Shown here: positions 3,699 to 45,090 of the stretch, piece by piece
Layout of the letters: each line of letters opens with the position of its first letter
Position numbering within the stretch: the stretch's first letter is position 1
Source of the DNA: Candidatus Binatia bacterium
Lineage (GTDB): Bacteria; Desulfobacterota; Binatia; UBA9968; JAJDTQ01
DNA length: 64,000 nt
NCBI GenBank assembly: GCA_963666515.2
Contig: OY762897.2
Coordinates: 3,232,001-3,296,000, forward strand
Direction of reading: 5' to 3'
Notes under the pieces: model-generated
Told to the model about the DNA's origin: nothing
Database searches by the model: none
Seen by the model: the letters and a program-made list of their open reading frames with translations, nothing else
Position numbers and translations under genes: made by a program

Positions 3699-4889
3699 TT
3701 ACTGGACGATCTCGGTCACGACCCCGGCGCCGACGGTGCGGCCGCCTTCGCGGATGGCGAAGCGCAGGCCGTCGTCCATGGCGATGGGGGTGATGAGATC
3801 GACGTCGATGTGAACGTTGTCGCCGGGCATGATCATCTCGGTGCCCTCGGGCAGCGTGGCCACGCCGGTGACGTCGGTGGTGCGGAAGTAGAACTGCGGG
3901 CGATAGCCGTTGAAGAACGGGGTGTGCCGGCCGCCCTCTTCCTTGGTCAGGATGTACGCCTCGGCCTTGAACTTGGTGTGCGGGGTGACCGTCTTGGGCT
4001 TCGCCAGCACCTGGCCGCGCTCCACCTCGTCGCGCTTGATGCCTCGCAGCAGCACGCCGATGTTGTCGCCCGCCTGTCCCTCGTCGAGCAGCTTGCGGAA
4101 CATCTCGACGCCCGTGGCCACCGTCTTCTGGGTCTCCTTCAGGCCGACGATCTCCACCTCGTCGCCGACGTGCAGGATGCCCCGCTCCACCCGGCCGGTC
4201 ACCACGGTGCCGCGGCCGCTGATGGTGAAGACGTCCTCCACCGGCATGATGAACGGCTTGTCCACGTCCCGCATGGGGTCGGGAACGTAGCTGTCCACCG
4301 CGTCCATCAACGCGGTGATCGAGTCGGTGCCCAACTCGCCACCCTCTCCCTCGAGGGCCTTGAGCGCGCTGCCGGTGATGACCGGGATGTCGTCGCCCGG
4401 GAACTGGTACTTGGAGAGCAGCTCCCTCACCTCCAGCTCCACCAACTCCAGCAGCTCGGGGTCGTCCACCATGTCGGCCTTGTTGAGATAGACCACGATG
4501 GAGGGAACGCCGACCTGGCGGGCCAGCAGGATGTGCTCGCGGGTCTGCGGCATCGGGCCGTCGGCCGCGGACACCACCAGGATCGCGCCGTCCATCTGGG
4601 CGGCGCCGGTGATCATGTTCTTCACGTAGTCCGCGTGTCCCGGGCAGTCCACGTGGGCGTAGTGGCGCTTGTCGGTCTGGTACTCGACGTGGGCGATGTT
4701 GATGGTGACGCCCCGCTCCCGCTCCTCCGGCGCCTTGTCGATCTGGTCGAAGGGCACGAAATCCGCCGACCCCCGTTCCGCCAGCACCTTCGTGATCGCC
4801 GCGGTCAAGGTCGTCTTGCCGTGGTCCACATGGCCGATGGTGCCGATGTTGAGGTGTGGTTTCGTACGCTCGAATTTTGCCTTGCTCAT
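3699..4889 (-). CDS. tuf: Elongation factor Tu (396 aa)
   Basis: [12 protein letters not shown]...GHVDHGKT...DCPGH...NKAD; true start is ATG 4889 with AGGAG upstream. Confidence 0.99.
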
Positions 4890-4943
4890 CTTCTCCTCCT
4901 GTGGATCCCTCTCCGTTGGTTTCAATCCTTTACAAACAGGCAA

Positions 4944-5016
4944 AGCCCAGGAGCGGGCTTGAACCGCCGACCTCGTCCTTACCAAGGACGTGCTCTACCG
5001 ACTGAGCTACCTGGGC
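4944..5016 (-). tRNA. tRNA-Thr (GGT), CCA not encoded
   Basis: GCCCAGG...CCTGGGC-T; anticodon arm CGTCC-TT-GGT-AA-GGACG. Confidence 0.95.
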
Positions 5017-36296: not shown

Positions 36297-37454
36297 TCAC
36301 AGGCTCCCGGCTATCGCAGAGTTTAACGCATATCTCTTTCCTGGCAACTGCCTGAGCAGGCCCTGCAGCTCCATCTCCAGAAGCACCTCGCAGACCTGCT
36401 GCGCCGGCAGGCCCGTCCGGTGAATGACCTCGTCCATCTGCAGCGGTCCGGCCTCGAGGTCCCGCAGGATCGCTCCGGCCGGGCCTTCGAGGGGTGCCCC
36501 TCCGCCGGAAACGCCGCCGGAGCCGGTTGCCGTCGGGGTGGACGCAAGCGCCGAGGCAGGCAACTGCGGCGCGATCTCCTCGATGACGTCGGTCACGTCC
36601 TCCACCAGCTTGGCTCCCTGACGGATCAGCCGGTGGGGACCCCGGCTGCGGGCGGCGCCGGCCGGGCCGGGGACCGCGAACACCTCCCGGCCCTGCTCCA
36701 ACGCCCAGCGGGCAGTGATCAACGAACCGCTCCGCTCGGTGGCTTCCACCACCACCACGCCCAGCGAGAGGCCGCTGATGATCCTGTTGCGGGCGGGGAA
36801 GTGTCGCGACAAGGGAGCAGTCCCCATGGGATGCTCGGAAAGCACCGCGCCGCTCTCCTCGATGCGGCGGCAGAGGTCACGGTGCTCCGGCGGATAGGGC
36901 ACATCCACGCCCGAGCCCAGCACCGCCAGGGTGCGGCCGCCTCGGGACAGCGCCGTTTCATGCGCTTCGCCGTCGATGCCGCGGGCCATGCCGCTGACCA
37001 CGGCGACGCCGGCGGCCGCCAGACCCCGGCACAGCAGACGGGTCATCTCGCGGCCGTACTCGCTGGGCGCGCGGGTGCCGACCACCCCCACCGCCGCACG
37101 CCCGGCCGCGTCCGGCGAACCCTTGACGTAAAGCACAGGAGGCGGGTCGGGAAGGACGCGCAGGCGCTCGGGGTACGAGGCGTCGGAGTAGCGCAAGAGC
37201 AGGCATCCCGCGTCCCGCACCCGACGCATCTCGTCCGCCAGACGGTCCCAGCCCGAAAACGCCAGCAGGCCCTCGACCGCGGCGCGGCTCAGCCCGGGAA
37301 CCTCGCGCAACGCCACGCGACCGCCGAAGAAGGCATCGGTGGGGTCGGCGAAGAACTCCGCGATGCGCCGGAACCCGACGCACCCGAGCCCCGGCGTCTG
37401 TCCGAAGGCCAGCCACGCGAGGTCCCGCCGGCTCTCACCCGGCGCCCGGCTCAC
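36297..37454 (-). CDS. dprA: DNA processing protein DprA
   Basis: YPERL...[40 protein letters not shown]-terminal winged helix; GTG overlaps the der stop. Confidence 0.93.
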
Positions 37455-38926
37455 CGTTGGCCCCGGCCCGCCCGCGGCCGCAGGGCCAGCCGCACCGGCG
37501 TGTGCTCCAGACCCAGCTCCGCGCGCAACGCCTTGACGAGGTAGCGCCGGTAGCCCGCGCCCACGCCTTCCGGATGGTTGACAAACAGCGTGAACGTCGG
37601 CGGCTGCACGTCCGTCTGGGCGCCATAGTAGAACTTCACCGGACGCCCGCGGAATTGCGGCGCGGCGTGCCTTTCGGTGAGGCGGCGCAACGCCCGGTTG
37701 AGCGCCGGCGTCCTGATCCACCGGCGCGTGGCGTTGCCCACCCGTATGACCGTATCCATGAGCTTCGTCATGCCCGACCCTTCCAATGCCGATAAGGATA
37801 CTATCGGCACGTGGTCGGCAAACGGTAGCCGCCGGTGCAAAAAATCCTGGTACACCCGAAGGCTCGACCGGTCCGTGTCCAGGAGGTCCCACTTGTTGAT
37901 GCCCAGGACCATGGCCTTGCCGCGCTGGAAGCCGTAGGACATGACCTGCGCGTCCTGGTCCGTCACCCCTTCGGAGCCGTCCAGCAGGTGGATCACCACG
38001 TCGCCGGCGTCCACCGAGCGCAACGCGCGGCTTACGCTGTAGCGTTCCACCGGGTCGACCACCCGTGCCTTGCGCCGGATTCCGGCCGTGTCCGTCAGGC
38101 GGCACGGGGTCTCGCGCCAGGTGAAGTCGGCCTGCAGCGCGTCCCGGGTGGTGCCCGGCCGCGAGTCCACCAGCGAGCGGTCGTAGCCCAACAGCCGGTT
38201 CACCAGCGTCGACTTGCCGACGTTGGGACGGCCCACGACGGCCAGCGCAAGAGGCTCGGCGGAATCGGGGTTCCCCTCCCGGCCGCGGGCGCCGGCGGCA
38301 TCCGGCGTGCCCTCCCGACCACGGGCGCCGGCGGCATCGAGGGTGTCCTCCCGACCCCGTGCCCGAGCGGATTCCGGTGAGGAGGCGGAAGGCATTGCCG
38401 GCGCCCGGTCCGGCCCCGGCGGCAACGCGTCCACCACCTCCTGCATCAGGTCCGCCACCCCCAGCCCGTGCTCGGCGGATAGCGGGAACAACCGCTCCGC
38501 GCCGAGCCGGAAGAACTCGTAGAGGTCGCTCTCGCGGGGGCCGGTGTCCAGCTTGTTCACCGCGTAGAACACCGGCTTGGGTGCCTGCCGCAGCAGCTCC
38601 GCCGCAGCCGTATCCAGCGGCGTGGGCCCAGCGCGGCCGTCCATGAGGAATACGATGACGTCGGCCTCGTCCACCGCGGTCAGGGTCTGCTTGAATATCC
38701 GGCCCTTGAGCCCCTCGCGCTCGTCCGGCTCCAGTCCGCCGGTATCCACCAGCATGAAGCGGTGGCGGCGCCACGCCACCGGGTTGTAGTTGCGGTCACG
38801 GGTCACACCGGGCTGGTCGTCCACAATGGCGCGCCGCGCCCGGCTCAGGCGGTTGAACAGCGTGGACTTGCCCACGTTGGGCCGCCCCACGATGGCCACC
38901 ACCGGCATGTTTTCGGGAGTGCTCAT
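37451..38926 (-). CDS. der: Ribosome biogenesis GTPase Der (EngA)
   Basis: Two GRPNVGKS G-domains (DTGG/NKLD; DTAG/NKWD) plus a KH-like C-terminus. Confidence 0.97.
   Translation of the reverse strand: MSTPENMPVVAIVGRPNVGKSTLFNRLSRARRAIVDDQPGVTRDRNYNPVAWRRHRFMLVDTGGLEPDEREGLKGRIFKQTLTAVDEADVIVFLMDGRAGPTPLDTAAAELLRQAPKPVFYAVNKLDTGPRESDLYEFFRLGAERLFPLSAEHGLGVADLMQEVVDALPPGPDRAPAMPSASSPESARARGREDTLDAAGARGREGTPDAAGARGREGNPDSAEPLALAVVGRPNVGKSTLVNRLLGYDRSLVDSRPGTTRDALQADFTWRETPCRLTDTAGIRRKARVVDPVERYSVSRALRSVDAGDVVIHLLDGSEGVTDQDAQVMSYGFQRGKAMVLGINKWDLLDTDRSSLRVYQDFLHRRLPFADHVPIVSLSALEGSGMTKLMDTVIRVGNATRRWIRTPALNRALRRLTERHAAPQFRGRPVKFYYGAQTDVQPPTFTLFVNHPEGVGAGYRRYLVKALRAELGLEHTPVRLALRPRAGRGQR
38274..38381. 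repeat. Three degenerate 36-bp tandem repeats inside der
   Basis: Units start at 38274, 38310 and 38346 ((C/T)CCTCCCG...) and encode ARGRE-x-x-x-DAAG in the inter-domain linker. Confidence 0.85.
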
Positions 38927-38948: not shown

Positions 38949-39884
38949 TCACAACCCGAAGGCCTCGAGGCTCCGGGGGTCCCGGCTCCAGCCGGGCGCG
39001 GCCTTGACCGCCAGATCGAGGTAGACGCGGCAGCCGAGCAGGCGCTCCAGGTCCTCCCGGGCCGCGCTGCCGATCTCCTTGAGCGCCGCGCCGCGCTTGC
39101 CGATGAGGATCGGCTTGTGGCTCTCCCGCTCGGTGTGGATGGTGGCGGCGATGACCACGAGGCCGCCGCCGTTCTTCTCCTCGAAGCTCCGTACCGACAC
39201 CGCGGTGCCGTAGGGGATCTCCTGGCGGGTGTGCAGGAAGACCTTCTCCCGGACGATCTCCGCGGCGATGAACCGCTCCGTCTGGTCCGTCAGCTCGTCC
39301 TCCGGGAAATAGCGGGGACCGGGCGGCAGCCGCTTCAGCATCCCCTCCAACAGCAGCGGGACGTTCTCCCCGGTCCGGGCGCTGATGGGTACGATCTCCC
39401 GCTCCGGCAGCAGCTCGGCCAAGCGCGCCATCACCGGCAGCAGCCGTCCCTTGGACACCGCGTCGATCTTGTTGAGCGCGATCACGGTCTCGCGCCGGCT
39501 GCCGGACAGTATCCCGGCGATGTCCTCATCGTCCCCCCGCAGGCCGCCGCGGGCGTCCACCACCCACACCACCGCCTCCACGTCCCCCAGGGAACGTCTG
39601 GCCACGTCCACCATGCGCCGGTTCAGCAACGACCGCGCACGGTGGATACCCGGCGTGTCCAGCAACAGGATCTGCCCCTCCGGCAGGGTCTTGATGCCCA
39701 TGATCCGGTTCCGGGTAGTCTGGGGCCGGGGCGAGACAATGGCGATCTTCTCCCCCAGGAGCTGGTTCAGCAGCGTGGACTTCCCCACGTTGGGCCGGCC
39801 CAGGATCGCGACGAAGCCCGAGCGGAAATCCTCCGGAACAGGCGCTTCCTTCTGCTCTCCGCGCGTAGGGTCGATGGCGGCCAT
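38949..39884 (-). CDS. era: GTPase Era
   Basis: FRSGFVAILGRPNVGKST, PQTTR, DTPG, NKID, KH domain (EIPY, IGKRG). Confidence 0.97.
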   Translation of the reverse strand: MAAIDPTRGEQKEAPVPEDFRSGFVAILGRPNVGKSTLLNQLLGEKIAIVSPRPQTTRNRIMGIKTLPEGQILLLDTPGIHRARSLLNRRMVDVARRSLGDVEAVVWVVDARGGLRGDDEDIAGILSGSRRETVIALNKIDAVSKGRLLPVMARLAELLPEREIVPISARTGENVPLLLEGMLKRLPPGPRYFPEDELTDQTERFIAAEIVREKVFLHTRQEIPYGTAVSVRSFEEKNGGGLVVIAATIHTERESHKPILIGKRGAALKEIGSAAREDLERLLGCRVYLDLAVKAAPGWSRDPRSLEAFGL

Positions 39885-39890
39885 CGGTCC

Positions 39891-39918
39891 ATTATGGCAC
39901 GGACGAAGGGCAGGTCAA
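39891..39918 (-). promoter_or_regulatory. Candidate promoter of era (leaderless geometry)
   Basis: TTGACC-16 nt-CATAAT with upstream TG; only 6 nt to the ATG. Confidence 0.55.
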
Positions 39919-40032
39919 TCCACAGTCCTGACGAGCGCAGACCGGCATGGAGTGGGCGTTTCACCCCGGTGCTCACGGCACGACCACCGGCGTTGACTTC
40001 GTGATGGCCCATATTTTGCGGCGAAGTAGAGG

Positions 40033-40341
40033 ATGCAATGGTACAGGTACATCGAAGACTCCGAATGGGAGGATATAACCAATAGCGGGATGCTGAAACC
40101 GGGGCGCAATAGCTGCGGATCCGGCAAGTGGTTGGCCAGCAGCGAAGAGGCTGCATGGCGGTGGGGGAGAGCACTCGACGAGCGTTTTCCCGGTCGGGTT
40201 GTGGTTCTGGATCTGGACGATGACATCGCCGAGAGGGCCAGGCTCGTTGCCAACCTTGACGGCATTGGACATGCAGCGTACATTGACTCCGACGACTTGT
40301 GGCGGCTTCGGATTGTGGACATACGGAGGTACGAAGGATGA
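40033..40341 (+). CDS. Hypothetical 102-aa protein; putative ADP-ribosyltransferase-fold toxin domain
   Basis: WYR strand, helix (SEWEDI), GKWLASS strand-loop, helix (EEAAWRWG), RVVVLDL strand, LDGIG...YI. AGAGG upstream and ATGA coupling to the next gene. The ORF is likely real; the fold call is inference. Confidence 0.55.
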   Translation: MQWYRYIEDSEWEDITNSGMLKPGRNSCGSGKWLASSEEAAWRWGRALDERFPGRVVVLDLDDDIAERARLVANLDGIGHAAYIDSDDLWRLRIVDIRRYEG

Positions 40342-40664
40342 GACGTCCCGGACAACACGCGGTGTTCGCCACCTTCCGTCCCGCAGACGATCGGACCCGG
40401 GCGGTACTGCGTCGGGGCAAGCCCGTGAGCAGTCTTGCCCGCTTCACGGGCACGGACACGCCGCCAGCCAGCCTGTTGATGGATGCCTGTCAAAAGAGCG
40501 ACAACCTTGTCCGTATCGAACTTCTGGTACACGCCGAGCGAACGGAACAATTGCCCGTAGGCAGCAACTTCGAACTGGTGGCCGGAGATGCGTTGTTGGG
40601 ATACGGGACGATCCTTCCCCGTGCTACGGGGAAGGATCCGGCTGATGTGAAACCGCCAGGCTAA
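40338..40664 (+). CDS. Hypothetical 108-aa protein with an EF-Tu domain III-like C-terminus; putative antitoxin/immunity protein
   Basis: GSNFELVAGDALLGYGTI aligns without gaps to [18 protein letters not shown] of Tuf in this window; GGAGG RBS; ATGA overlap. Confidence 0.55.
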   Translation: MRRPGQHAVFATFRPADDRTRAVLRRGKPVSSLARFTGTDTPPASLLMDACQKSDNLVRIELLVHAERTEQLPVGSNFELVAGDALLGYGTILPRATGKDPADVKPPG

Positions 40665-40752
40665 CGAAACCCCGCCCTGAACGTTCGCTGAATCGAATTC
40701 TGTCCCCAGAAACGTTTGCTGGCGGTCTCGCCGGGAATCCTCGTCCGCCGCC

Positions 40753-43700
40753 TCACCCTGCCCGCCGCACGTGGATGAACGTGCGCAGCGCCAGATCCAG
40801 CAGGAAGACGCCCAGGCCGGCGGCGGCCAGCGCCCACCAGATGCCCCGGGCGGAACCGGCGGCGTCGGGGTCGGCGGTGAACAGGCGCTCGATGTCCTCG
40901 GCCAGGGTTTCCTCCCGCAACACCTTACCGCCGGTCTCCTGGGCCAGCCGTTCCATCAGCCCGGTGTCGGCGTCCATTTCGCGGTACTCCCTGGAGAAGG
41001 GCACGATGAAGGGGACGGTGAGGGCCACGGGGGGCGCGCCAGAAGGGCCCGGCGGCTGCTTCACGGTGAGCAGGTTGATGCCCCGGCGCGGCGTGGCGAA
41101 GCTCGTGCGGTAGCGGCCGGGAGCCACCTGCCGGAACGCTTCCTGTTGCAGGGTCTCGTCGGCCCGTGTCAGCAGCCCTTGCAGCTTCAGGTGGTTCACC
41201 GGCCGTCCCGAGGCTGAGAAGAGGTCCACCACCGCCCTCATGACCTCTCCCTCCCTCACGAAGTCCGTCCGCAACCGCTGGTCCGACACGCTCCTCACCG
41301 CCAGCCGGGCCATCTGCGCGGCCCACCTGGGGAACGCCGGCCACTGCACCCAGTGGCGCCCCCACCTGCCGGAAACGTCGGAGGTGAACGCGTACACCCG
41401 GCCCAGGCCGTAGCGCCACGAGACCAGCAACGGGTCCTCGCCGGCGCGCGCGTGGACCTCGGCTCCGGGCTTCACATGGGTCAGGACGTAGCCCAGTATC
41501 CGCGGCAACGGCTCGCCCGAGAGGCCGCGCATGGGGCCCGCCGGCCCCGCTGCCACCGGGGTCACGGTCTTTTCCACCAGCAGGTCCCGGGAGATCAGCA
41601 GCGTCTCGGTGGTGAAGATCTGCGGGATGGTCCGCGGGTCCACGCTGGCATAGCTCCGGCCCTTGCCGCCCTGCGCGAGCTGGGTCATGAGACGGCGGTT
41701 GGCGTCGCCGCCGATGGACACGGTGGAGACGGTGATCCGCTCCCGGGCCATGCCGCTCACCTGTTCCAGCAAGTCCTCCTTTTCGGTGAGCCCGTCCGAC
41801 AGCACCAGCACGTGCTTGATGGCGGCCTCCTTGGCCGCCAGCGCCCGGCGGCCTTCCACCATGGCCTTGTGGAGGTCGGTGCCGCCGTCGGAGCTGAGCG
41901 CGGCCACGTCGTCGGCGATGCTCTCGCTGCCGCCGGCCGCGCGGAACGGCACCACCCACTGCCACTGGGAGTCGAACGCCAGGATGCCCACCTCGTCGGT
42001 GGGGTTGAGCAACTCCGCGGACGCCATGGTGGCCGCCTTGGCCAGGTCCAGCTTGGTGGTGCCGTAGGGGCCGCTGCCCATGCTCCCCGACTTGTCCACC
42101 ACGAAGAGCAGCGCCACGTGGGGCAGCTCCATGCGCGCCGGCGGCCGCATCTCCACCGGGAGCGTCTGCTCCAGCGGCGTCCGGTAGTAGCCCCCGGCGC
42201 CGTAGCTCCGGGTCCCGCCCAGCACGATGAGGCCGCCTCCGAGGTCGCGCACGAACCGCTCGATGCGTTCCATCTTCACCTGCGAGAGCTGGTAGGCGGG
42301 CACGTTGTCGAGGATCAGCAGGTCGAAGCCCGACAGCTCGGGCAGCGTGAGGTTGGCCCGCGCCGGGGTCTCCTCCACCACGTCGTACCCTTGCACCTGC
42401 AACGCCTCGGCCATGAAACGCCGCCCCGCGTCGGCGCCGTGGAGGTACAGGACCCGCGAGGGTCCCTTGACGCTCACGATGCCCTGCAGCAGGTTGTTCT
42501 CCGCCAGCACGTCCGCGGCCGCGTCCACCATCAACTCGTAGGTATGGGCGCCGCGGCGCTCCAGGCTGTCGGTGAAGCTGAGCCAGTTGGCGCCCGGCGC
42601 CAGCTCCCGGCGGGCGGAGCGGATGACGCGCCCGTCCCGCAGCAGGGTGACGGCCGCGGACGACGCCCGGGCGCTGGTGAGCGCGGCCTTGATCTCGAAG
42701 GTCTCGCCGCTGTCCACTACCGAAGGCACGGTGAACTCCGACAGGTAGACCTCGTTCCTGCCCTCGGCGAGGCTCACGGGATACGGCCACACCGCCACCC
42801 CGTGGGACCGCAGCATGGGCAGCACCCGCTCCACCGAGCCGCGGTTCTCGTTGGCGTCGGAGATGAGCAGGATGCGGCTCTCGCGCTCCTCGCTCAACTC
42901 GCCCAGGGCGCCCTGGAGCGCCGCTCCGAGATCGGTGGCGTCGCGCTCCGGCGGGGGCGGAAGGTCGCTCACCGGAAGCTCGTGGGTGGGCAGGAACTCC
43001 CACTGCGGACGGCGCGCGAAGGAGAACAGGCCCAGCCGCACCTTGGGGTCCACCAGTTCCCCGGCCTGCTCCAGCACGTCCGCGGCCCGCACACGGGCCT
43101 CCTCCCCGACGCTGTGGGAAAGGTCCACGGCCATCACCACGTCCAGCTCGGGATCCTCGGCGAGGACCCGCGGGTTCACCAGCGCCACCACCAGCAGCGC
43201 CACCGCCGGCGCCCGCAGCCACAGCGGGAGCAGCGAACGCCGGGCGCGGCAGACCACCACGCTCTCCGCCAGCAGCAGCGCCAGGGCCAGGACCAGCAGC
43301 GCCGGCCACAGGTCGAGGCGGGCGCCGCGGCCGCTCTCGGCCACGCGCGCGGCCGCCGAGGCCGGCGGCTCCGCCCGGTAAGCGGGACGGATGCGGGACT
43401 CCTCCTCGCTGAACAGGTTCACCCCGAACTCGCCCTCCCCGTGCTTTCCCCGGAACCGGTAGAAGCCGACCTCCGCGGTGTCGGCGTAGGCGCCCTGGCG
43501 CTCCCGGATACGCACCGGGCTGCTGTCGCCGGAGGGGTTCACGAACACGAGAGCCTCCTCGTCCACGCCGACGTCGGCGACGAACGGCAGGCCCGCGGCC
43601 ACTTGGCTGGCGGGAAACTCCCGGGCCGTGGGCCGGAACCAGGAGAAGGCGTTGCGCACCAGCAACGGGAACGAGACCCGGAACGGCAGGTCCGACCGGG

Positions 43701-45090
43701 TGAGGTCGAAGGCGAAGACCAGGGCCTTGAGATCGCCGGACTCCACCGCGTGGATCAGCGGCCCGCGTTCGGATTCGGCCAGCGACACGCCCCCGCCGTC
43801 CGCCACCAGCTCCAGCGCGTCGCGCACGTAGAGCCCGTCCAGGCGCACGCCCGCGGCCAGCGGGTGGTCGGAGCCGGTGGAGACCAGCGCTGGCCGCGGG
43901 GTCTCTCCGGCCACGCGCAGGGGCAGACCTTCGGCCACCGTGCGGATGAGGATGAAGTTGCCGCGGGCCAGCGGCGGCGCCGGCACCCGGTCCAGCATCA
44001 CCACGTCGTAGGCGGCCACCTGCTCGGTCACGCGGTCCACCGGGATGCGGTCGATGCGGGCCAGGGTGACGTGGGGGAAATAGCGCAGCAGGCGCTCCAG
44101 GAACGGGTTGCCGGGCCCCACGTACAGCACCCGCGTGGGGCGCTCGTCGGGAAAGGCCAGGAAGGCGCGGTTGTCGGTGCGCAGGTCGTCATCCACCGCC
44201 AGCAGCGCGGTGGCGCGCCCCCGCAGGGGGCCGGGGACGCCGTAGATCAGCACCTCCCGCGCCAGCGGCTCCAGCGACAACAGCGCCCGGCTCACCACCC
44301 GGTCCGACACCGTCACGACGAGGGGCGCGTGCACCGTCCGCTCGGTGAAGTTCTGCACCACCACCATGGCCTCGTACTCGTCGGCCCGCCCGGCCACCCG
44401 GCGGAACTGGAAACCCAGGATGCCGACGTTGTCGACGCCTCCGCGGACCTGCACGACCTCCAGGTAGGACGCCTCCAGCGGCAGCTCCTCGATGCCCTTG
44501 AAGGCGCCGTCGGTGATCACCACCACCCGGTGCGGCCCCTGGCGCTTGAGGAACGTGTGCGCCAGCAGCACCGCCTCCTTCACCGGGGACTCGGCGTCGG
44601 TGGCCGACAACCCCTCGGCGGCGCGCCGAAGCCCGGCCCGGTCCCTCGTGAAGGGCTGGATCACCCGGGGCTGCGCCGCCGCGCCGATGATCATCATGCG
44701 GTCGCCGGCGCCCAGCGCGTCGATACGCCGCAGCAGCTCGCCGCGGGCCGCATCCCAGCGCGAGCCCGACTCCCCCGCCGCCTTCATGCTGGCGCTCAGG
44801 TCCATCACCACCACGAGGTCGCGGCCGCCGCTGCCCACTCCCAGGAGCGCCGGCCACGCCAGCGCGGTGACGACCGCGGCGGCGGCCAGGAGCTGCAGGA
44901 TCAGCGGCAGGTTGCGGCGCCAGAGCCAGCCCAGGCGCCGGCCCACGGGCCTTTCACGCAGCACCTTCTCCAGCAGGAAGAGCGCGGTGACCGGGACCCT
45001 CGGACCCCTGGGCCGGAGGCTGTTGAGCAGCAGGATGAGCGGGACGGCCCCCAGCAGGATGAGAAAAGCCGCGGGAAAGAACCACAGCAT
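40753..45090 (-). CDS. Large membrane-anchored protein with a BatA-like N-terminus and three vWA/MIDAS motifs
   Basis: N-terminal TM pair with LILQLL; MIDAS motifs DLSAS, DLSHS and DKSGS; GATase-like segments (FDLLILDNV...GGGLIVLGG; GLGRV); C-terminal TM. Confidence 0.85.
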   Translation of the reverse strand: MLWFFPAAFLILLGAVPLILLLNSLRPRGPRVPVTALFLLEKVLRERPVGRRLGWLWRRNLPLILQLLAAAAVVTALAWPALLGVGSGGRDLVVVMDLSASMKAAGESGSRWDAARGELLRRIDALGAGDRMMIIGAAAQPRVIQPFTRDRAGLRRAAEGLSATDAESPVKEAVLLAHTFLKRQGPHRVVVITDGAFKGIEELPLEASYLEVVQVRGGVDNVGILGFQFRRVAGRADEYEAMVVVQNFTERTVHAPLVVTVSDRVVSRALLSLEPLAREVLIYGVPGPLRGRATALLAVDDDLRTDNRAFLAFPDERPTRVLYVGPGNPFLERLLRYFPHVTLARIDRIPVDRVTEQVAAYDVVMLDRVPAPPLARGNFILIRTVAEGLPLRVAGETPRPALVSTGSDHPLAAGVRLDGLYVRDALELVADGGGVSLAESERGPLIHAVESGDLKALVFAFDLTRSDLPFRVSFPLLVRNAFSWFRPTAREFPASQVAAGLPFVADVGVDEEALVFVNPSGDSSPVRIRERQGAYADTAEVGFYRFRGKHGEGEFGVNLFSEEESRIRPAYRAEPPASAAARVAESGRGARLDLWPALLVLALALLLAESVVVCRARRSLLPLWLRAPAVALLVVALVNPRVLAEDPELDVVMAVDLSHSVGEEARVRAADVLEQAGELVDPKVRLGLFSFARRPQWEFLPTHELPVSDLPPPPERDATDLGAALQGALGELSEERESRILLISDANENRGSVERVLPMLRSHGVAVWPYPVSLAEGRNEVYLSEFTVPSVVDSGETFEIKAALTSARASSAAVTLLRDGRVIRSARRELAPGANWLSFTDSLERRGAHTYELMVDAAADVLAENNLLQGIVSVKGPSRVLYLHGADAGRRFMAEALQVQGYDVVEETPARANLTLPELSGFDLLILDNVPAYQLSQVKMERIERFVRDLGGGLIVLGGTRSYGAGGYYRTPLEQTLPVEMRPPARMELPHVALLFVVDKSGSMGSGPYGTTKLDLAKAATMASAELLNPTDEVGILAFDSQWQWVVPFRAAGGSESIADDVAALSSDGGTDLHKAMVEGRRALAAKEAAIKHVLVLSDGLTEKEDLLEQVSGMARERITVSTVSIGGDANRRLMTQLAQGGKGRSYASVDPRTIPQIFTTETLLISRDLLVEKTVTPVAAGPAGPMRGLSGEPLPRILGYVLTHVKPGAEVHARAGEDPLLVSWRYGLGRVYAFTSDVSGRWGRHWVQWPAFPRWAAQMARLAVRSVSDQRLRTDFVREGEVMRAVVDLFSASGRPVNHLKLQGLLTRADETLQQEAFRQVAPGRYRTSFATPRRGINLLTVKQPPGPSGAPPVALTVPFIVPFSREYREMDADTGLMERLAQETGGKVLREETLAEDIERLFTADPDAAGSARGIWWALAAAGLGVFLLDLALRTFIHVRRAG

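Follow-up and report, generated by a model that had tools for sequence, protein, structure and literature searches.

What are two short, overlapping genes that match no curated family model doing between the housekeeping gene era and a giant vWA gene? The locus lies in the window analysed here, a 64,000-nucleotide (nt) stretch of the genome of a Candidatus Binatia bacterium (GenBank assembly GCA_963666515.2, contig OY762897.2, positions 3,232,001 to 3,296,000 of the forward strand), and its two open reading frames (ORFs), ORF1 and ORF2, share an ATGA at 40338-40341 of the window in which the stop of the first overlaps the start of the second. An earlier, sequence-only reading of this DNA had reported two small ATGA-coupled ORFs, with coordinates and a shared ATGA that agree with ours, and had taken ORF1 for a minimal ADP-ribosyltransferase (ART) that ORF2 neutralises by imitating domain III of the elongation factor EF-Tu. 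The answer that we favour, with a probability of about 0.7, is a cassette of the polymorphic-toxin type, in which a stand-alone toxin and its immunity protein, acquired by horizontal transfer, would work like a type II toxin-antitoxin (TA) system. That it is a stand-alone toxin/immunity or TA-like module is well supported by context, because the predicted ART fold, the domain III barrel, the co-occurrence of the two families and the position of the toxin domain at Rhs C-termini elsewhere all bear on it. To that extent (fold, co-occurrence and Rhs tips) the sequence-only interpretation stands, and the mimicry of EF-Tu, which was its other half, appears doubtful for the reasons given below.

The AlphaFold2 model of ORF1 has a predicted local distance difference test score (pLDDT) of 86.7. 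With this model, Foldseek retrieves ART-fold proteins only, at weak E-values of 0.01-0.6, and VIA-align places it closest to the NAD-binding domain of Tpt1 (1wfx; Z 10.2, rmsd (root-mean-square deviation) of 2.8 over 89 amino acids (aa)) and to CC0527 (2o0q; Z 9.4, 97 of 102 residues aligned), followed by TreTu (7zhm_A; Z 8.6), with RhsP2, ParT, RES, Tne2 and the diphtheria and cholera toxins further down. A scan of 48,161 PDB representatives that was independent of Foldseek likewise has nothing but ART folds in its top 50 rows. All 50 top rows are thus ART-fold proteins in each of the three structure searches, with 97-102 of the 102 residues spanned and Z reaching 10.2, as the sequence-only reading had anticipated, and the modelled fold of ORF1 is the split beta-sheet core of the ADP-ribosyltransferases. 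Sequence-profile searches of the PDB with ORF1 and ORF2 profiles returned nothing useful, the best match being the ADP-ribosylating toxin SAIP at E 0.064, and a SpnB_Rossmann match (E 0.03) in the Pfam-type model scans of the two ORFs was judged spurious.

With a profile built from ORF1 and sequences close to it, 269 representatives are retrieved at E <= 1e-3, and in many of these proteins the match is confined to the extreme C-terminus. When the 14 longest relatives were scanned, 13 proved to have RHS repeats or an RHS core upstream and the ORF1 domain at the extreme C-terminus, which bears out the expectation that ORF1 would be found as an Rhs C-terminal domain. The toxin domain itself was without a Pfam match in all 30 relatives scanned, and the 50 short members of the family gave no ART-family match in Pfam and no NCBIfam match of any family. 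Across these 50 short members R5, E11, G31 and D76 are invariant, and K32, A35, A41, W44, L75, G79, A81 and L89 are nearly so; ORF1 retains every family-conserved residue (signature R5, E11, G31-K32, W44, L75-D76-G-I-G79, A81). In the model beta1 carries R5, helix 1 carries E11 and beta2 carries K32, while D76 falls in the loop that precedes beta5; these four residues would form the probable active site. The motifs singled out earlier (W3-Y4-R5, G31-K32-W-L-A-S-S37 and L75-D-G-I-G79) are all present in ORF1, but the analogies to STS and E-x-E drawn from them hold only in part, given that conservation falls on R5, E11, G31-K32 and D76. GKWLASS had been likened to an aromatic-S-T-S motif, but the conserved residue of beta2 is K32 and the serines are not conserved; an acidic residue, D76, is indeed conserved in the LDGIG loop, but there is no STS and no E-x-E. 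Nor are the signs of the cholera-toxin-like R-S-E clade present: beta2 reads G-K-W-[FL]-A with unconserved serines following, and where that clade has E-x-E at beta5 the ORF1 loop L-D-G-I-G-P-A carries no Glu.

The unorthodox residue set has a parallel in TreTu, which together with TriTu makes up the C-terminal ART toxin and immunity protein of the Salmonella Typhimurium Rhs-main locus (PDB 7ZHL/7ZHM). TreTu ADP-ribosylates EF-Tu at D21, and its toxicity needs R6 (beta1), E12 (helix 1), S25, H31 (beta2), F41 and W68 (PMC9825190). Like ORF1, TreTu is a minimal ART-fold domain of ~100-110 aa (Z 8.1-8.6, rmsd 2.5-2.8, 86-87 aa aligned); both it and the ORF1 family domain are borne at Rhs tips, and in both cases the immunity gene lies directly downstream. 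In each, the Arg of beta1 is followed six residues on by the Glu of helix 1 (R6/E12 in TreTu, R5/E11 in ORF1), and a basic or His residue stands on beta2 at about +26 (H31 and K32, respectively), so that the putative active site of ORF1 would resemble the R/E/H/W site of TreTu. The two differ in that TreTu has W68 on beta5 where the ORF1 family has D76 in its LDGIGPA loop, in that TriTu is described as an NAD+-trapping protein with a sheet of five strands and two helices (PMC9825190) whereas ORF2 is modelled as a beta-barrel, and in that the ORF1 copy here has no Rhs carrier. TreTu is absent among the PDB matches at E <= 10 with two ORF1 sequence profiles, the fold match notwithstanding.

Several other identities were considered for ORF1 and set aside. 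Tox-ART-HYD1 (PF15633), represented by Tre23 of Photorhabdus, an ART toxin that is carried by an Rhs protein and stops translation, stands at rank 9 among the ESM Atlas neighbours; PF15633 has no match in ORF1 (E up to 10) or in the 50 family members, and Tre23 uses H8 and Y33 (PMC8661411) where the ORF1 family has its beta1 Arg. TreThr was rejected because it is of the R-S/T-E type, with a helix-inserting immunity protein (PMC13617354), and Tne5 for its K...E pocket and five helices (PMC13285283).

Fold alone cannot tell a transferase from an enzyme of NAD(P)+ degradation, and ORF1 might instead be an NAD(P)+-degrading glycohydrolase or phosphorylase like Tne2, Tse6, Tne5, RES or MbcT, with ORF2 a plain immunity protein whose EF-Tu-like fold would be an incidental scaffold. 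We consider this a live alternative, if an unlikely one, because Tne2 (Z 7.3), RES (7.5) and MbcT (7.2) share the fold and because Tne5, an ART-fold Rhs toxin that depletes NAD(P), uses a Lys-based pocket (PMC13285283); VPA0770 (Z 8.0) is a further structural match of this kind, and the conserved ORF1 set is without the canonical catalytic Glu of transferases. The best structural matches, however, are the RNA- or protein-directed transferases Tpt1 and TreTu, and the family has an invariant acidic residue, D76, before beta5, where transferases have theirs.

The second line of evidence is the company that the toxin domain keeps. A degenerate DNA pattern derived from two conserved toxin motifs picked out 66 loci in genomes of many phyla, 55 of which contain a toxin-domain ORF (42 full-length domains and 13 fragments); among the full-length domains 15 are stand-alone, five have a short N-terminal extension, 20 a long one (at least 150 aa) and two an N-terminus that falls off the locus. 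Directly downstream of 49 of the 55 strong toxin ORFs, that is, with a start within -60 to +150 nt of the toxin stop, there is an ORF of at least 85 aa, often with a 4-nt overlap, and most of these partners, like ORF2, are about 100 aa long. The sequence-only reading had asked for co-occurring homologues, and 46 of the 49 downstream partners do fall in one blastp cluster with the ORF2 family, which the ORF2 group joins via seven different partners and so not by way of its 50%-identical relative in a Pseudomonadales metagenome-assembled genome (MAG) alone. When a profile is made of the 42 partners that do not belong to the ORF2 subfamily, ORF2 comes out at the top of the 26,873 six-frame ORFs of its own genome (E 0.019), and hhalign aligns the ORF2 subfamily with the other partners over 86 columns (P 2.7e-5, probability 74%); ORF2 is therefore best regarded as the local member of a family that occupies the immunity position, Rhs-borne toxins included. 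At one locus, in Gayadomonas joobiniege (L050, 3073-4037), two toxin-domain ORFs are each followed by a partner gene of their own, an arrangement that looks like a tandem cassette array such as those of polymorphic-toxin orphans.

The AlphaFold2 model of ORF2 is less confident than that of ORF1, having a pLDDT of 71.5 and a disordered tail past residue 96. Foldseek gives EF-Tu structures as its best rows and has domain III of eIF2-gamma and the barrel of MnmA in its top ten; with VIA-align, every one of the top 50 rows is a translational-GTPase domain III (Z 8.2-9.5, ~80 aligned residues). In the PDB scan independent of Foldseek, domain III of translational GTPases again fills 20 of the top 21 rows (Z 9.5-7.0), the remaining one being the EF-Tu-like barrel of MnmA (Z 7.7), and unrelated rows start at Z 6.2. 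The GTP_EFTU_D3-like barrel predicted for ORF2 was thus recovered, and it is well supported, on the strength of these models, that ORF2 shares the domain III beta-barrel fold of translational GTPases.

Does the likeness extend to ancestry? The partner consensus, W..e.GGR..pP..g.Y...A.F ... WS ... FL..aP..L..G..F.L.EG.k.VA, parallels the motif order of Tuf domain III, and in both EF-Tu domain III and the ORF2 family a loop with GGR is followed first by an aromatic strand and then, at the C-terminus, by F.[IL].EG...[GA]. With an EF-Tu alignment of five distinct sequences, hhalign matches the partner family to Tuf domain III end to end (84-86 columns, P ~1e-3), whereas the control against Tuf domain II covers 17-23 columns at P 0.04-0.2. 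The spacing that had been noticed by eye in ORF2, G75..F78.L80..G83...L87-G88.G90.I92, is that of the Tuf encoded in the window, and hhalign pairs the two stretches in register. Tuf is the second-best match of the full partner hidden Markov model (HMM) among the 26,873 genome ORFs and, through domain III, the third-best when the HMM is built without ORF2; the commonest among the weak NCBIfam matches of the 49 partners are three EF-Tu models (with 3, 2 and 1 members, possibly overlapping proteins), and the ESM Atlas neighbours of ORF2 include clusters with GTP_EFTU_D3 in 28% of their members. Each of these sequence signals is by itself below significance (HMM E 2-4). Pfam GTP_EFTU_D3 reaches 16.8 bits in one of the 49 partners, short of its cut-off of 27, and a scan of the genome with PF03143 finds tuf only and does not match ORF2; the ORF2 subfamily alone reaches P 0.26-0.34 against Tuf domain III, with DDRTR standing where GGR would be. 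Unlike domain III of EF-Tu, ORF2 is a free-standing protein of ~100 aa, below every curated cut-off. On this evidence the partner family, ORF2 included, and EF-Tu domain III probably share ancestry.

It is tempting to go further and to see in ORF2 a decoy derived from the target, as the sequence-only reading did: the toxin would dock via domain III of EF-Tu, or of EF-Tu with its aminoacyl-tRNA, and modify EF-Tu or the bound RNA, and ORF2, as a free copy of the docking domain, would fill the substrate-recognition surface of the toxin. The clear structural matches of ORF2 are essentially to domain III alone, the consensus and the hhalign result (P 1e-3, with the domain II control weaker at 0.04-0.2) run parallel to Tuf domain III, and Tuf's rank with the partner HMMs, the weak NCBIfam matches and the 28% ESM Atlas clusters have the same direction; moreover TreTu, the nearest characterised toxin with equal spacing of the beta1 Arg and helix 1 Glu, does ADP-ribosylate EF-Tu (PMC9825190). 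But the sequence signals are all sub-significant, down to P 0.26-0.34 for the ORF2 subfamily taken alone, and TreTu is reported to recognise the G domain and helix D rather than domain III, with TriTu an unrelated alpha/beta lid (PMC9825190). Immunity proteins are, besides, usually unrelated to the targets of their toxins. That the immunity family is a captured EF-Tu domain III, protecting because the toxin reads its substrate through that domain, therefore seems to us doubtful. If it were true, an immunity protein would have descended from its toxin's own target, and the epitope that the toxin recognises would consist of the conserved GGR loop and the EG..VA strand at the C-terminus; in EF-Tu domain III both belong to the surface that faces the tRNA and domain 1.

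The barrel also occurs in a longer protein. In the long form, found in a related genome (G013), in three further protein clusters and in the Pseudomonadales MAG, it makes up the N-terminal ~100 aa of proteins of 349-444 aa. The C-terminal part of the MAG protein has a marginal PDDEXK_4 match (22.6 bits, cut-off 22.3), while in the G013 type a conserved 'RPD...(I/V)EAK' motif, spotted by eye, is the sole basis for a PD-(D/E)XK reading, PDB and Pfam searches with that C-terminal domain having given no match; by BLASTP the C-terminal parts of the two are unlike each other. A barrel fused to a possible nuclease may represent a different, sensor-effector use of the same domain. DNA homology to the long, fused form of G013 stops at 40624, in the loop of a 13-bp hairpin within ORF2, and this hairpin may mark the point of truncation or fusion of ORF2.

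How did the pair come to lie where it does? The GC content is 0.59-0.62 over 39900-40800 and 0.66-0.77 in the flanks, so that the pair is indeed more AT-rich than its surroundings, and the suggestion that it was inserted between era and the vWA gene is borne out by empty sites in two sister genomes. In G015 stretches matching window positions 39885-39921 and 40742-40900 lie only 3 nt apart, and in G024 era adjoins the vWA gene too. Because the flank matches adjoin in G015, save for that 3-nt gap, we place the cassette at about 39922-40741; a target-site duplication and terminal (inverted) repeats were looked for at these ends and none was seen. Of 61 related genomes, seven have ORF1 and nine have ORF2, all of them in the window's own genus save for one weak ORF2 match, and wherever either is present in these genomes it is located between era and the vWA gene. 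An index of 5.8 billion proteins returned close homologues only, 10 for ORF1 and 12 for ORF2.

ORF1 and ORF2 are real genes under purifying selection: between the four genomes with intact copies the pairwise ratio of nonsynonymous to synonymous substitution rates (dN/dS) is 0.11-0.25 for ORF1 and 0.13-0.26 for ORF2, much like the 0.15-0.23 of era. Two overlapping antisense ORFs (39767-40459 and 39915-40550) were taken as high-GC artefacts. At the same site in other members of the genus the pair is found in various states of decay. ORF1 is frameshifted beside an intact ORF2 in G025 (L005/L008) and reduced by an internal deletion to residues 48-83, again with ORF2 intact, in G017 (L007/L012); G004 (L015) has ORF2 alone, G012 (L006) a 58-aa fragment of ORF1 alone and G003 (L016) a fragment of ORF2. 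In no genome does an intact ORF1 stand without ORF2, and it is in this order, toxin first, that a toxin and its antidote would be expected to disappear.

Such a series raises the question of whether the copy in the window is itself a decaying, functionless remnant. Relatives do carry frameshifts, deletions and fragments at this very site, and ORF2 here lacks the long form's C-terminal domain; both frames are nevertheless intact, the family-invariant residues are all retained, dN/dS is 0.11-0.26, and partners elsewhere are mostly ~100 aa too. We regard this explanation as very unlikely.

In the model that we propose, ORF1 is a minimal, NAD+-using toxin domain with a predicted ART fold, which elsewhere serves as an exchangeable C-terminal tip of Rhs proteins, and our best guess is that its substrate is a component of translation. 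ORF2, translationally coupled to ORF1, would be the cognate immunity protein, neutralising ORF1 by binding it; this role is suggested by its gene position, the co-occurrence and the pattern of decay. A prediction of the ORF1-ORF2 complex scored 0.26 against a mark of 0.32 and counts neither way. An orphan Rhs toxin is reported to act as a type II TA system, and the cassette resembles orphan Rhs toxin-immunity cassettes in consisting of a toxin tip without a delivery part and an immunity gene (PMC7043789). It differs from them in that its genome is without any Rhs gene: a search of the genome for RHS repeats found none, and there is no remnant of an Rhs core upstream of ORF1. Since the genome has no RHS repeat, ORF1 would be without a carrier here, and the pair would most likely persist as an addiction or abortive-defence module that some members of the genus are losing. 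The cassette shares several traits with type II TA systems: its two genes are small, coupled and read in the same direction, the putative antitoxin is a protein, and the toxin is lost first.

Several observations weigh against this picture. The cluster that unites 46 of the 49 partners with the ORF2 family was formed from blastp matches by single linkage (E <= 1e-3, database of 62 sequences), and the link of ORF2 to the partners is moderate, the HMM match at E 0.019 lying in its C-terminal half only and the hhalign probability being 74%. No Pfam, NCBIfam or PADLOC model (the last at E up to 10) matches ORF1 or ORF2, and the conserved R5, K32 and D76 do not constitute a canonical ART triad. Tblastn of plasmid and phage collections with ORF1 and with a consensus-like relative (L052) gave no match, and the toxin family pattern had 0 matches in viral contigs. 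The cassette has no defence-island context, and ORF2, a single barrel with a disordered tail, has no HTH, RHH or AbrB match that would make it a DNA-binding antitoxin. A scan of the + strand upstream of ORF1 brought up no sigma-70-like promoter. A scan for terminators 3' of ORF2 also found none. In a single metatranscriptome run one contig of 263 nt spans 40447-40709 with 3 differences (distal ORF2 and 45 nt past its stop); the rest of the cassette, ORF1 included, is without RNA cover in the metatranscriptome contigs, so that this single contig is at most a weak hint of expression.

A quite different function, in which ORF1 would be a housekeeping ART-fold enzyme akin to CC0527/DUF952 or to the RNA-repair enzyme Tpt1, and ORF2 an RNA-binding helper with EF-Tu's tRNA-binding barrel, is most improbable: Tpt1/KptA, the RNA 2'-phosphotransferase whose C-domain is of ART fold, and CC0527 (DUF952) are the top structural matches and of similar size, and tRNA is bound by EF-Tu domain III and by the barrel of MnmA (Z 7.7), but Tpt1 and CC0527 are H-H-h clade housekeeping proteins that have no sequence match to ORF1 and are neither fused to Rhs proteins nor paired with an immunity protein, the Pfam models of DUF952 and Tpt1 match neither ORF1 nor the 50 members, and ORF1-type domains sit at Rhs C-termini in a pair that is patchy (ORF1 in 7 of 61 related genomes), inserted at a site that is empty elsewhere, and decays toxin first.

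The features of the locus are collected in Table 1. Beyond era lie trmFO, dprA and der, and beyond the vWA gene DUF58 and MoxR ATPase genes. In der (EngA; 37451-38926, - strand) the linker between the two GTPase domains contains three tandem units of ~12 aa, ARGRE[GD]T[PL]DAAG-like, with which a GC-rich bump at ~38100-38500 coincides. The surroundings of era vary within the related genomes: G006 has a second, partial era 3' end (L115, 2664-2864; residues 244-311, 74% identity) just downstream of era, and in G006, G011 and G023 the vWA gene was not found within 1.5 kb on the ORF1 side of era, where the neighbourhood is different.

Table 1. Coordinates of the cassette and of related features; positions are those of the window unless a locus is named.
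Feature	Position	Strand	Description
ORF1	40033-40341	+	102 aa; predicted stand-alone ART-fold toxin domain, family without a model
ORF2	40338-40664	+	108 aa; putative cognate partner (immunity/antitoxin), modelled EF-Tu domain III-like beta-barrel, short form
Inserted cassette	39922-40741 (approx.)		~820 bp, low GC, between era and the vWA gene
Inverted repeat	40610-40638		Perfect 13-bp repeat with 3-nt loop, within the variable 3' tail of ORF2
era	38949-39884	-	Left flank; housekeeping GTPase (Pfam MMR_HSR1 + KH_2)
BatA/vWA gene	40753-45090	-	Right flank; 1445 aa (Pfam BatA, VWA_2, VWA, GATase1_like)
tuf	3699-4985	-	EF-Tu gene of the window
Long ORF2 forms	L014:1501-2604 (G013); L057:3701-5032; proteins P0172-P0174		ORF2-like barrel as N-terminal ~100 aa of proteins of 349-444 aa

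Neither the ORF1-type toxin family nor the ORF2-type partner family has been described before. A search of the literature, in open-access text exclusive of supplements, found no paper that treats EF-Tu domain III together with immunity or an antitoxin, and EF-Tu is unmentioned in the 300,000 characters of the 2012 polymorphic-toxin survey that were covered. The locus follows the usual logic of a toxin and its immunity protein, but with two families that no model covers, one of them probably of unexpected origin. The toxin family is widespread, with 269 representative clusters in many phyla and no Pfam or NCBIfam model, and the strictly co-occurring immunity family has the fold of EF-Tu domain III and probably its ancestry.

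ART-fold polymorphic toxins have so far come to light one by one (TreTu, Tre23, TreX, TreThr, Tne5), each with a new way to stop translation or to drain NAD, and ORF1, as a predicted ART enzyme of no more than 102 aa, offers a minimal example for structural work. The decay series at one site within the genus should be useful for dating the loss of the toxin relative to that of the immunity gene and, together with the stand-alone copy described here, it shows the life and death of such cassettes outside Rhs loci. Finally, the pairing of a toxin with an EF-Tu-like partner provides a concrete route by which to ask whether immunity proteins evolve from the targets of the toxins they neutralise.

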